Positions 13,004 through 13,083 of a stretch of 64,000 nucleotides of DNA are shown here, one piece after another (the first letter of the stretch is position 1; each line of letters begins with the position of its first letter). Origin of the DNA: Escherichia phage vB_EcoM-Pr103Blw. Location: the sequence record MW481326.1. One strand, given 5' to 3'. The notes beneath the pieces are model-generated. The model did not search any database and was not told the DNA's origin. It worked only from the letters and a program-made list of their open reading frames with translations. A program made the position numbers and the translations under genes.

Positions 13004-13083
13004 GGGACGATGTTAAGACTCTAAGGCATGAGCAACGGCCTCCAAAACCGTTTCAAAGGGGTTCAACTCCTCCGTCCCATGCC
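13004..13083 (+). tRNA. atypical tRNA-like gene with Trp anticodon loop (CTCCAAA, anticodon CCA) and non-canonical D region
   Basis: Perfect acceptor ATGGGAC/GTCCCAT, T-loop TTCAACT, anticodon stem ACGGC/ACCGT; about 5 extra nt between D and anticodon arms. Confidence 0.35.

Follow-up and report, generated by a model that had tools for sequence, protein, structure and literature searches.

Which gene, if any, provides the transfer RNA (tRNA) for tryptophan in the large tRNA cluster of Escherichia phage vB_EcoM-Pr103Blw? The question is raised by an element at 13002-13084 of a stretch of 64,000 nucleotides (nt) from this phage (MW481326.1), which was analyzed as a whole and is called the window throughout; unless another record is named, coordinates are positions in the window and refer to its plus strand. 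The source is a Felix O1-like phage (Felixounavirus), as a query of 241 nt around the element retrieved 256 GenBank phage records, nearly all of them from Felixounavirus and its relatives. ARAGORN called 26 tRNA genes between 11128 and 16353, 24 of which were confirmed by Rfam, and these calls cover 19 amino acids with tryptophan as the sole gap. The element is situated within the cluster, a tRNA-Ser gene starts 13 nt downstream of it, and it shares an encoded CCA end with 25 of the 26 cluster tRNAs. A previous sequence-only reading had described the region as an atypical tRNA-like gene with a Trp anticodon loop and an aberrant D region, and this description matches the results obtained with ARAGORN, with Rfam and from the alignment of homologs. 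As far as sequence comparison can tell, the element most probably completes the tRNA set of the phage, and it is likely to be a charged, decoding tRNA-Trp(CCA) with a non-canonical architecture.

The gene has a length of 83 nt including the encoded 3' CCA. Its ends were delimited by the mitochondrial mode of ARAGORN, which tolerates aberrant D arms and called an mtRNA-Trp(cca) at 13002-13084, as well as by RNAalifold, covariation and the cassette junctions described below. The sequence-only reading had placed the element correctly, but its limits (13004-13083) have to be moved outward by 2 nt and 1 nt, respectively. The perfect acceptor of 7 base pairs (bp) that it had reported (ATGGGAC, 13002-13008, with GTCCCAT, 13074-13080) is present and is extended by G13009-C13073 to an 8-bp helix. 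The 5' strand is ATGGGACG (13002-13009); the 3' strand CGTCCCAT pairs with it (13073-13080) and is followed by the discriminator G73 (G13081) and the CCA (13082-13084), so that the segment 13073-13084 has a G-CCA end. The acceptor is followed by an unpaired connector of 9 nt, ATGTTAAGA (13010-13018), which has a length of only 2 nt in canonical tRNAs and is nearly invariant in sequence. The D hairpin (13019-13033) consists of CTC, the loop TAAGGCAT with G18 and G19, and GAG, followed by C13033, which may pair with G13017; the hairpin is 100% paired in the homologs.

The anticodon arm (13034-13052) is built from AACGG, the loop CCTCCAAAA and CCGTT, and it is backed by covariation. The loop CTCCAAA was verified at 13040-13046, with the anticodon CCA at 13042-13044 and U33 at 13041. 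It is flanked by the unpaired C13039 and A13047 (positions 31 and 39), which formally enlarges the loop to 9 nt. A variable region of 5 nt, TCAAA (13053-13057), is invariant in the alignment and leads into the T arm, which had also been recognized before (13058-13072; GGGG at 13058-13061, TTCAACT, CCTC at 13069-13072; 4 bp). The distance between the acceptor and the anticodon stem is about 26 nt, compared to 19-23 nt normally. The fold of the single sequence contained the 8-bp acceptor, the 9 unpaired nucleotides AUGUUAAGA, the D hairpin CUC/GAG, a 5-bp anticodon stem and the T arm, with a z-score of -1.5 to -1.65.

The element, termed type A in the following, occurs in about 235 GenBank phage records, which belong to Felixounavirus, Mooglevirus, Suspvirus, unclassified Pectobacterium phages (Wc4, Arno162) and Yersinia phage P778. 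When Felixounavirus and Yersinia phage sequences were compared with BLAST, the element alone aligned (77.6% identity), and its flanks did not. An exact search of viral contigs with the 16-mer GGGACGATGTTAAGAC yielded 44 matches, about a third of which were unrelated coding sequence and were discarded. The coding or chance matches (TGG GAC GAT GTT AAG, i.e., WDDVK) that were excluded were L005, L010, L011, L013, L014, L016, L018, L020, L024, L027, L028, L031, L034, L037, L038, L040, L042, L046 and L048. Altogether, 17 distinct type A sequences, which represent at least four phage groups, were gathered from GenBank, IMG/VR and metagenome contigs, and 14 of them were aligned for the covariation analysis. 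When 185,579 bacterial and archaeal genomes were searched for a pattern composed of the linker, the anticodon loop and the T loop, no match was obtained, and therefore type A is a phage-specific form.

The alignment of homologous loci had been suggested as a check by the sequence-only reading, and it supported the cloverleaf. In the 14 distinct sequences 98.3% of the structure cells are occupied by standard pairs; with the 3' partners slid by 1-3 columns, this value fell to 33-53%. Compensatory double changes were found at six pairs (31 cells), namely at four of the five anticodon-stem pairs, at the middle pair of the D hairpin, which is U-A in seven sequences and A-U in the other seven, and at the outer T-stem pair, which changed from G-C to U-A. 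None of 500 shuffles reached the observed covariation score. An independent run of RNAalifold on the alignment returned the same cloverleaf, and in six representatives this cloverleaf was the minimum free energy structure or at most 3.7 kcal/mol away from it. In the acceptor stem 96% of the cells are paired across the homologs; its first pair (1-72) is A-U in the window and in eight of the 14 sequences, G.U in four, and G-C in the Yersinia/Pectobacterium copies. The D hairpin is stretched to 5 bp in the Yersinia and Pectobacterium phages. The CCA anticodon (C34 C35 A36), U33, A37, G73 and the GG of the D loop are invariant in all 17 distinct sequences, and the T loop keeps TTCRANN across the homologs. 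We are highly confident that the element is a structured RNA gene under selection. A z-score of about -1.5 for the single sequence would also be compatible with a chance resemblance in unprocessed intergenic spacer, but the covariation, the deep conservation, the cassette boundaries and the location in a cluster lacking Trp leave next to no probability for that.

The alignment also revealed how the stems deviate from the canonical arrangement. The anticodon stem has five covarying Watson-Crick pairs, which are located one step further up than usual (26-44 to 30-40). The pair 26-44 (alignment columns 35 and 53) is A-U, G-C or G.U and covaries, so that no free nucleotide 26 exists. Below the stem, 31.39 is C.A or C.C in every sequence, with an invariant C31 and either A or C at position 39. 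G8 and C65 can pair in all sequences, and if the branch is read as 7/5 instead, an A49.C65 mismatch results in all of them. An 8/4 branch, i.e., an 8-bp acceptor and a 4-bp T stem, is plausible; it falls short of being proven, because G8 and C65 never vary and thus cannot covary. The most conserved part of the element is the connector, with one substitution in 17 distinct sequences and a pairwise diversity of 0.014, versus 0.066 for the remainder.

A second register, in which GGCATG (13025-13030) pairs with CATGCC (13078-13083), had been proposed to give a D-armless mini-tRNA, and a conformational switch could be envisaged as well. The two segments indeed form a perfect 6-bp helix in the window, and they can also pair in the Yersinia/Pectobacterium clade (GGTGTG/CGCGCC, with two wobbles). 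However, this helix would bury the discriminator and the CC of the 3' end, leaving no CCA tail, would consume the elbow bases G18 and G19, and would compete with the energetically favored 8-bp acceptor stem. It is also broken in a natural variant (L089, GGAATG), and every change that keeps its pairing is accounted for by the pairs of the acceptor and of the D hairpin. The complementarity itself was thus seen correctly, but a D-armless functional fold is highly improbable.

A functional argument of a different kind comes from phage TH10. Its genome carries in the same slot, which is defined upstream by tRNA-Arg(tct) and a conserved spacer of 142 nt, a different tRNA-Trp(cca) of 71 nt, termed type B, which is called by ARAGORN and is followed by an open reading frame (ORF) of 134 amino acids (aa). 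Type B is present in about 24 Ounavirinae records (wV8, typing phages 11/12, SUSP1, Sf19 and others), which label it as tRNA-Trp or as a pseudo 'tRNA-OTHER'; in wV8 the label is that of a pseudo-tRNA. The fetched loci contained 70 copies of type A and seven of type B, and none had both. Among 26 loci that had been picked via an unrelated anchor, the gene for a DUF2828 protein, 22 had type A, three had type B and again none had both; the remaining locus ends before the slot, and type A is found on its contig. No genome without either Trp allele was found among the loci examined. The junctions are clean and identical in both alleles (...GAATTATAGT on the left, AGTCTTATTAGGGG... on the right), and therefore the exchanged unit is exactly 13002-13086. 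This one-for-one swap with a recognized tRNA-Trp is the strongest argument for a function short of an experiment, and the two alleles represent a natural swap experiment.

The two alleles have the slot, the CCA anticodon, A1-U72, G73 and an aberrant D arm in common. Their sequences are unrelated, without any BLAST match between A and B, and they depart from the standard D region in opposite directions: it is expanded in type A and shortened in type B, for which ARAGORN drew a poorly paired stem of four positions and a 7-nt loop. Type B has a normal 5-bp anticodon stem with U31-A39, in contrast to the unpaired 31.39 of type A. Its nearest relatives outside the subfamily are the tRNA-Trp genes of KVP40-like Vibrio phages (78% identity). 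Type B, unlike type A, travels with an endonuclease-like gene: the 134-aa ORF has the RefSeq label HNH endonuclease, although its Pfam match is weak (E of about 0.006, below the cut-off). Type B cassettes were located at L003 1649-1719 and L056 4010-4499 (phages TH10 and wV8), and also in L057 and L058. The type B tRNA together with the HNH-like ORF looks like a homing-type cassette. SegB-type homing in the tRNA gene region of phage T4 was reportedly described by Brok-Volchanskaya and colleagues in 2008. The type B cassette resembles it in that an endonuclease-like ORF inside a phage tRNA cluster goes together with an alternative allele of the tRNA next to it, and in its clean junctions. The resemblance applies to the rival allele B and not to the element itself, the HNH assignment is weak, and a cleavage of type A DNA is hypothetical.

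Of the options that the sequence-only reading had left side by side, the unusual functional tRNA-Trp is favored, because the element is the only Trp-type element in a cluster for 19 amino acids, its stems covary, and it is interchangeable with another tRNA-Trp(cca). Such a tRNA would be co-transcribed with the remaining cluster, and it would be trimmed by the host RNase P and by 3' processing. The identity set of enterobacterial tryptophanyl-tRNA synthetase (TrpRS) consists of C34 C35 A36, G73 and A1-U72. The CCA anticodon and G73 are present in the element and invariant in the 17 sequences, and in the source phage, which has A1-U72 in addition, the host TrpRS would be expected to charge the tRNA. 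The mature molecule would then read UGG. The acceptor and T stems would stack to 8 + 4 = 12 bp, and thus the 12-bp branch that is measured by EF-Tu and the ribosome would be preserved. The D stem of 3-4 bp would stack on the 5-bp anticodon stem and the unpaired 31.39 layer, which would add up to about 10 layers, the number found in a normal tRNA. Contacts at the elbow between G18 G19 of the D loop and the T loop (TTCRA) would also be kept. From the preserved stacks and elbow motifs we therefore infer an L-shaped molecule of normal size, in which the 9-nt strand would be looped out near the junction of acceptor and D stem.

Several observations weigh against a decoding tRNA-Trp. ARAGORN in standard mode made no call at 13004-13083, neither in the whole-window run nor in local runs, so that the scoring that had been suggested as a further check gave a tRNA-Trp(cca) in mitochondrial mode only. 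The element was absent from the 24 matches of an Rfam scan at gathering level (tRNA, RF00005, threshold 29 bits). No covariance model returned the clean cloverleaf that would have refuted the sequence-only reading: in a permissive scan the best match of the tRNA clan was tRNA-Sec (RF01852) with 23.0 bits (E = 0.017 in 241 nt), which is below its threshold of 47 bits and also below the 29 bits of the tRNA family. GenBank records annotated with tRNAscan-SE omit the element as well. The acceptor of the Yersinia/Pectobacterium copies requires a bulged U to pair, with G1-C72 instead of A1-U72 and with C2-G71, and the T stem of one natural variant contains a U.U mismatch. Among close relatives the element and the adjacent spacer have about the same diversity (0.060 and 0.063). 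The invariance of an unpaired linker suggests a specific partner beyond simple decoding. A precedent for a 9-nt connector among bacterial-type elongator tRNAs was not found in the open-access literature (none in PMC7609411 or PMC5389517), and the searched literature contained no reports on expression or charging of the element.

When 6 nt (at one position 5 nt) were removed anywhere within ATGTTAAGAC(T), ARAGORN called a standard bacterial tRNA-Trp(cca), and none of the deletions outside of this segment in the same scan had that effect. The element is therefore a canonical tRNA-Trp into which about 6 nt have been inserted 5' of the D stem, and the standard tRNA finders miss it because about six extra invariant bases are placed between the acceptor stem and the D arm. 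The estimate that the D region is about 5 nt too long was thus close to the mark.

An insertion and the lack of a call by standard tools would also be expected from a decaying tRNA-Trp pseudogene that is carried along in the cluster. The mismatches 31.39 and 49.65, the bulged acceptor of one clade, the T-stem U.U of one variant and a diversity near that of the neighboring spacer would fit this explanation, although the diversity comparison among close relatives turned out to be uninformative, as the element, the neighboring tRNAs and the upstream spacer are all alike. However, six compensatory pairs and 98% paired cells across genera whose flanking spacers cannot be aligned are at odds with decay, the insertion is the most conserved part of the element, and no examined genome had lost the element without gaining another tRNA-Trp. 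The pseudogene option is thus contradicted by compensatory evolution across several genera, and we regard it as very unlikely.

The conserved linker is also central to another explanation, according to which the element is a tRNA-derived structured RNA with a non-decoding role, e.g., a nuclease decoy or inhibitor, a ligand of a Ro-like protein (DUF2828/DUF7788) or a regulator, with the linker as a protein-binding handle. An unpaired linker of fixed sequence beside stems that change by compensation is what a specific binding site typically looks like, the tRNA finders reject the element, and a gene for a Ro-like RNA-binding protein is present at 9546-10961. Host defenses that cut tRNAs, including tRNA-Trp, do exist (PMC12916289); an eLife paper on phage tRNAs and anticodon nucleases made no mention of Trp. 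On the other hand, the invariant features are exactly the Trp identity and decoding set (CCA anticodon, U33, A37, G73 and encoded CCA), and a linker-less tRNA-Trp(cca) substitutes one-for-one in about 10% of the genomes while the Ro-like gene is kept. The specific idea of a Y RNA was rejected, as Rfam gave no match of the Y-RNA type and type B genomes have the Ro-like gene without a linker. The "other tRNA-like regulatory RNA" of the sequence-only reading stands beside the favored decoding tRNA-Trp, as a possibility that we consider rather unlikely.

Several candidate explanations for the linker and the flanks of the gene were discarded. A complement to the linker was not found in the window beyond chance. 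The downstream GTCTTA (13087-13092) was rejected as a linker partner, as L041 and the Yersinia/Pectobacterium phages lack it, and a pairing between linker and D loop (AUGUU/GGCAU), which occurs in one minimum free energy structure, is broken in L089. The start codon of the mini-ORF ATGGGACGATGTTAA (MGRC*) is GTG or GCG in other clades. The only match to a sigma-70-like promoter (TTGAGA-17-AATTAT, 12970-12998) is no better than expected by chance, and only 3 nt separate its -10 box from the gene; a 'promoter' annotated in AYO145A is this same site.

A more specific version of the decoding tRNA is that the connector and the unpaired 31.39 mark a tRNA-Trp that has been re-engineered, either to evade a host defense targeting tRNA-Trp or for a relaxed decoding of UGA, similar to the Hirsh suppressor or to short-stem tRNAs. 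The D arm and the anticodon stem of tRNA-Trp modulate UGA reading and decoding fidelity. No signal of UGA recoding was found in the window: nine of the 62 genes end in TGA, the extensions behind it comprise 0-16 codons, and tandem stops follow the TGA of large genes. We regard the re-engineering as unlikely; if true, the element would be the first natural elongator tRNA of a bacterial system with an enlarged, functionally essential connector 1.

The origin of the insertion can be approached through Erwinia phage phiEa21-4, a more distant member of the Ounavirinae, which has a canonical tRNA-Trp of 76 nt in a different slot (L097 24578-24653). Its anticodon arm CGGC-CTCCAAA-ACCG equals that of type A, including the C31.A39 mismatch; E. 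coli tRNA-Trp has U31-A39. The type A linker contains GTTAA, which resembles GTTTAA, the 5' strand of the D stem and the start of the loop in phiEa21-4. Going by these resemblances, type A looks like the tRNA-Trp of the subfamily with a short insertion that made a new proximal 5' strand, CUC, for the old GAGC. Covariation backs the proximal D hairpin. The 'ancestral' D stem UGUU/AGCA was rejected, as one of its pairs is broken in seven of 14 sequences without compensation. The phiEa21-4 gene is itself unusual: the mismatches U27.C43 and C31.A39 at both ends of the anticodon stem leave three Watson-Crick pairs, and its 3' end is GTCA, not GCCA. All three tRNA-Trp forms of the Ounavirinae are thus unusual in the D arm or in the anticodon stem. 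The gap after tRNA-Arg(tct) in phiEa21-4 (L097 around 23878-24065) contains a stretch of about 185 nt that ends in GCCA, has an 8-bp acceptor-like pairing (GGGTGATT ... AATCACTC) and includes GAGAGGTTCGAATCC, which resembles a T arm. ARAGORN made no call there, and the stretch may be a large tRNA-like RNA.

The element was compared with known tRNAs of canonical and non-canonical structure. The CUCCAAA loop, G73 and A1-U72 are features of E. coli tRNA-Trp. The element shares them with the canonical tRNA-Trp(CCA) of E. coli and phiEa21-4, together with the T loop, the GG of the D loop and the 3' strand GAGC of the D stem. It differs from the canonical form by the connector of 9 nt instead of 2 nt, a D stem of 3-4 bp with a bulge, a covarying Watson-Crick pair 26-44 instead of an unpaired nucleotide 26, and, plausibly, an acceptor/T branch of 8+4 rather than 7+5. 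Non-canonical 8/4 tRNA-Ser and tRNA-His (allo-tRNAs) are known in phages (Mukai et al., PMC5389517). The 12-bp acceptor branch that is readable as 8 + 4, the occurrence in phage tRNA clusters and the resemblance to tRNA-Sec, whose model gave the best Rfam match of the element, are shared with them. However, the 8/4 tRNAs are Ser-, His- or Sec-like and have long variable arms and long D stems with tetraloops, while the element is of the Trp type and has a variable region of 5 nt, a D stem of 3-4 bp, an 8-nt D loop and the long connector. tRNA-Sec itself has a UCA anticodon, a 13-bp acceptor branch and a long variable arm, in contrast to the CCA, the short variable region and the 23 bits of the element. 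A tRNA-Trp(CCA) with an unpaired top pair of the anticodon stem (27-43), a Blastocrithidia-like 4-bp stem, reads UGA (PMC13092985). The element resembles it in the CCA anticodon, in one terminal anticodon-stem position that never pairs and in an altered D-arm region, but 27-43 and 26-44 are paired and covary in the element, and it is 31.39 at the bottom that is open. The element, which is of the Trp type and has a short variable arm, thus matches neither of these two descriptions, and a bacterial-type tRNA with an enlarged, conserved connector 1 was not found described in the open-access literature.

The element was not annotated in any of the GenBank records inspected, including the tRNAscan-SE ones (CHB7, Sf14, Sf19-type, ESh19) and records with full tRNA tables (Michonne, Wc4, Arno162, typing phage 1, Felix O1). 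A 'tRNA-OTHER' under the first BLAST match turned out to be the neighboring tRNA-Ser and not the element. The Felix O1 genome paper lists 22 tRNAs and none for Trp (PMC3185647), the literature on Felix O1-like phages gives 22-26 tRNAs for 19 amino acids without Trp (PMC3185647, PMC12482277), and the Sf14 paper is likewise without a tRNA-Trp. Both phages carry the element, Felix O1 at NC_005282 26533-26616 and Sf14 at MF327003 16053-16136. At the position of tRNA-Arg(tct), Felix O1 has a further tRNA-like sequence (L099 around 545-640, NC_005282 around 25945-26040) with a TCT anticodon-loop motif (GGGGCGTATCTCAGCGGTCTTCTAAACCGCCG...GGGTTCGAGTCCT), which is not called by ARAGORN and abuts or overlaps the HNH endonuclease ORF45.

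The neighborhood of the element in the window has peculiarities of its own. The tRNA-Ser(tga) downstream (13098-13187) is barely above the Rfam threshold (31.1 versus 29 bits), is the only cluster tRNA without an encoded CCA (its end is ...CGCC|T), and has the label 'tRNA-OTHER' or no call in several GenBank records. The 142-nt spacer between tRNA-Arg and the element (12860-13001), which is common to both Trp alleles and contains the hairpin ACATGTTTTCCAGAACATGT, has a diversity of 0.063, about that of the tRNAs, whereas the spacer that follows tRNA-Ser has 0.122. Other long spacers in the cluster yielded sub-threshold Rfam matches to permuted transfer-messenger RNA (tmRNA; 12478-12662, 28.9 bits), to tmRNA (12594-12782, E = 5e-4) and to part of a tRNA (11971-12021, 22 bits), which may represent further degenerate or non-canonical tRNA-like RNAs. 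The Ro-like gene directly upstream of the tRNA cluster encodes a protein of 471 aa with the Pfam domains DUF7788 and DUF2828. Its homologs were found in 709 phage records (KVP40-like phages, mycobacteriophages, Listeria A511, and Campylobacter, Enterococcus and Staphylococcus phages), and they are frequently labeled 'Ro-like RNA-binding protein'. The Y RNAs bound by Ro/Rsr proteins contain tRNA-like modules, and therefore the DUF2828/DUF7788 protein may be linked to the tRNA cluster or to unusual tRNA-like RNAs.

The element exposes a blind spot of standard ARAGORN, of the Rfam models and, evidently, of the tRNAscan-SE runs from which the annotations in the databases were derived. It is also of interest for tRNA biology, as a natural cloverleaf, backed by covariation, in which a 9-nt connector between acceptor and D stem is both tolerated and conserved. 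Typing, biocontrol and therapy are classic applications of Felix O1-like phages, whose tRNA sets have been used to test why phages carry tRNAs. If the element is functional, these phages would have a complete set for 20 amino acids, and the analyses of codon usage and tRNA adaptation would need to be corrected.

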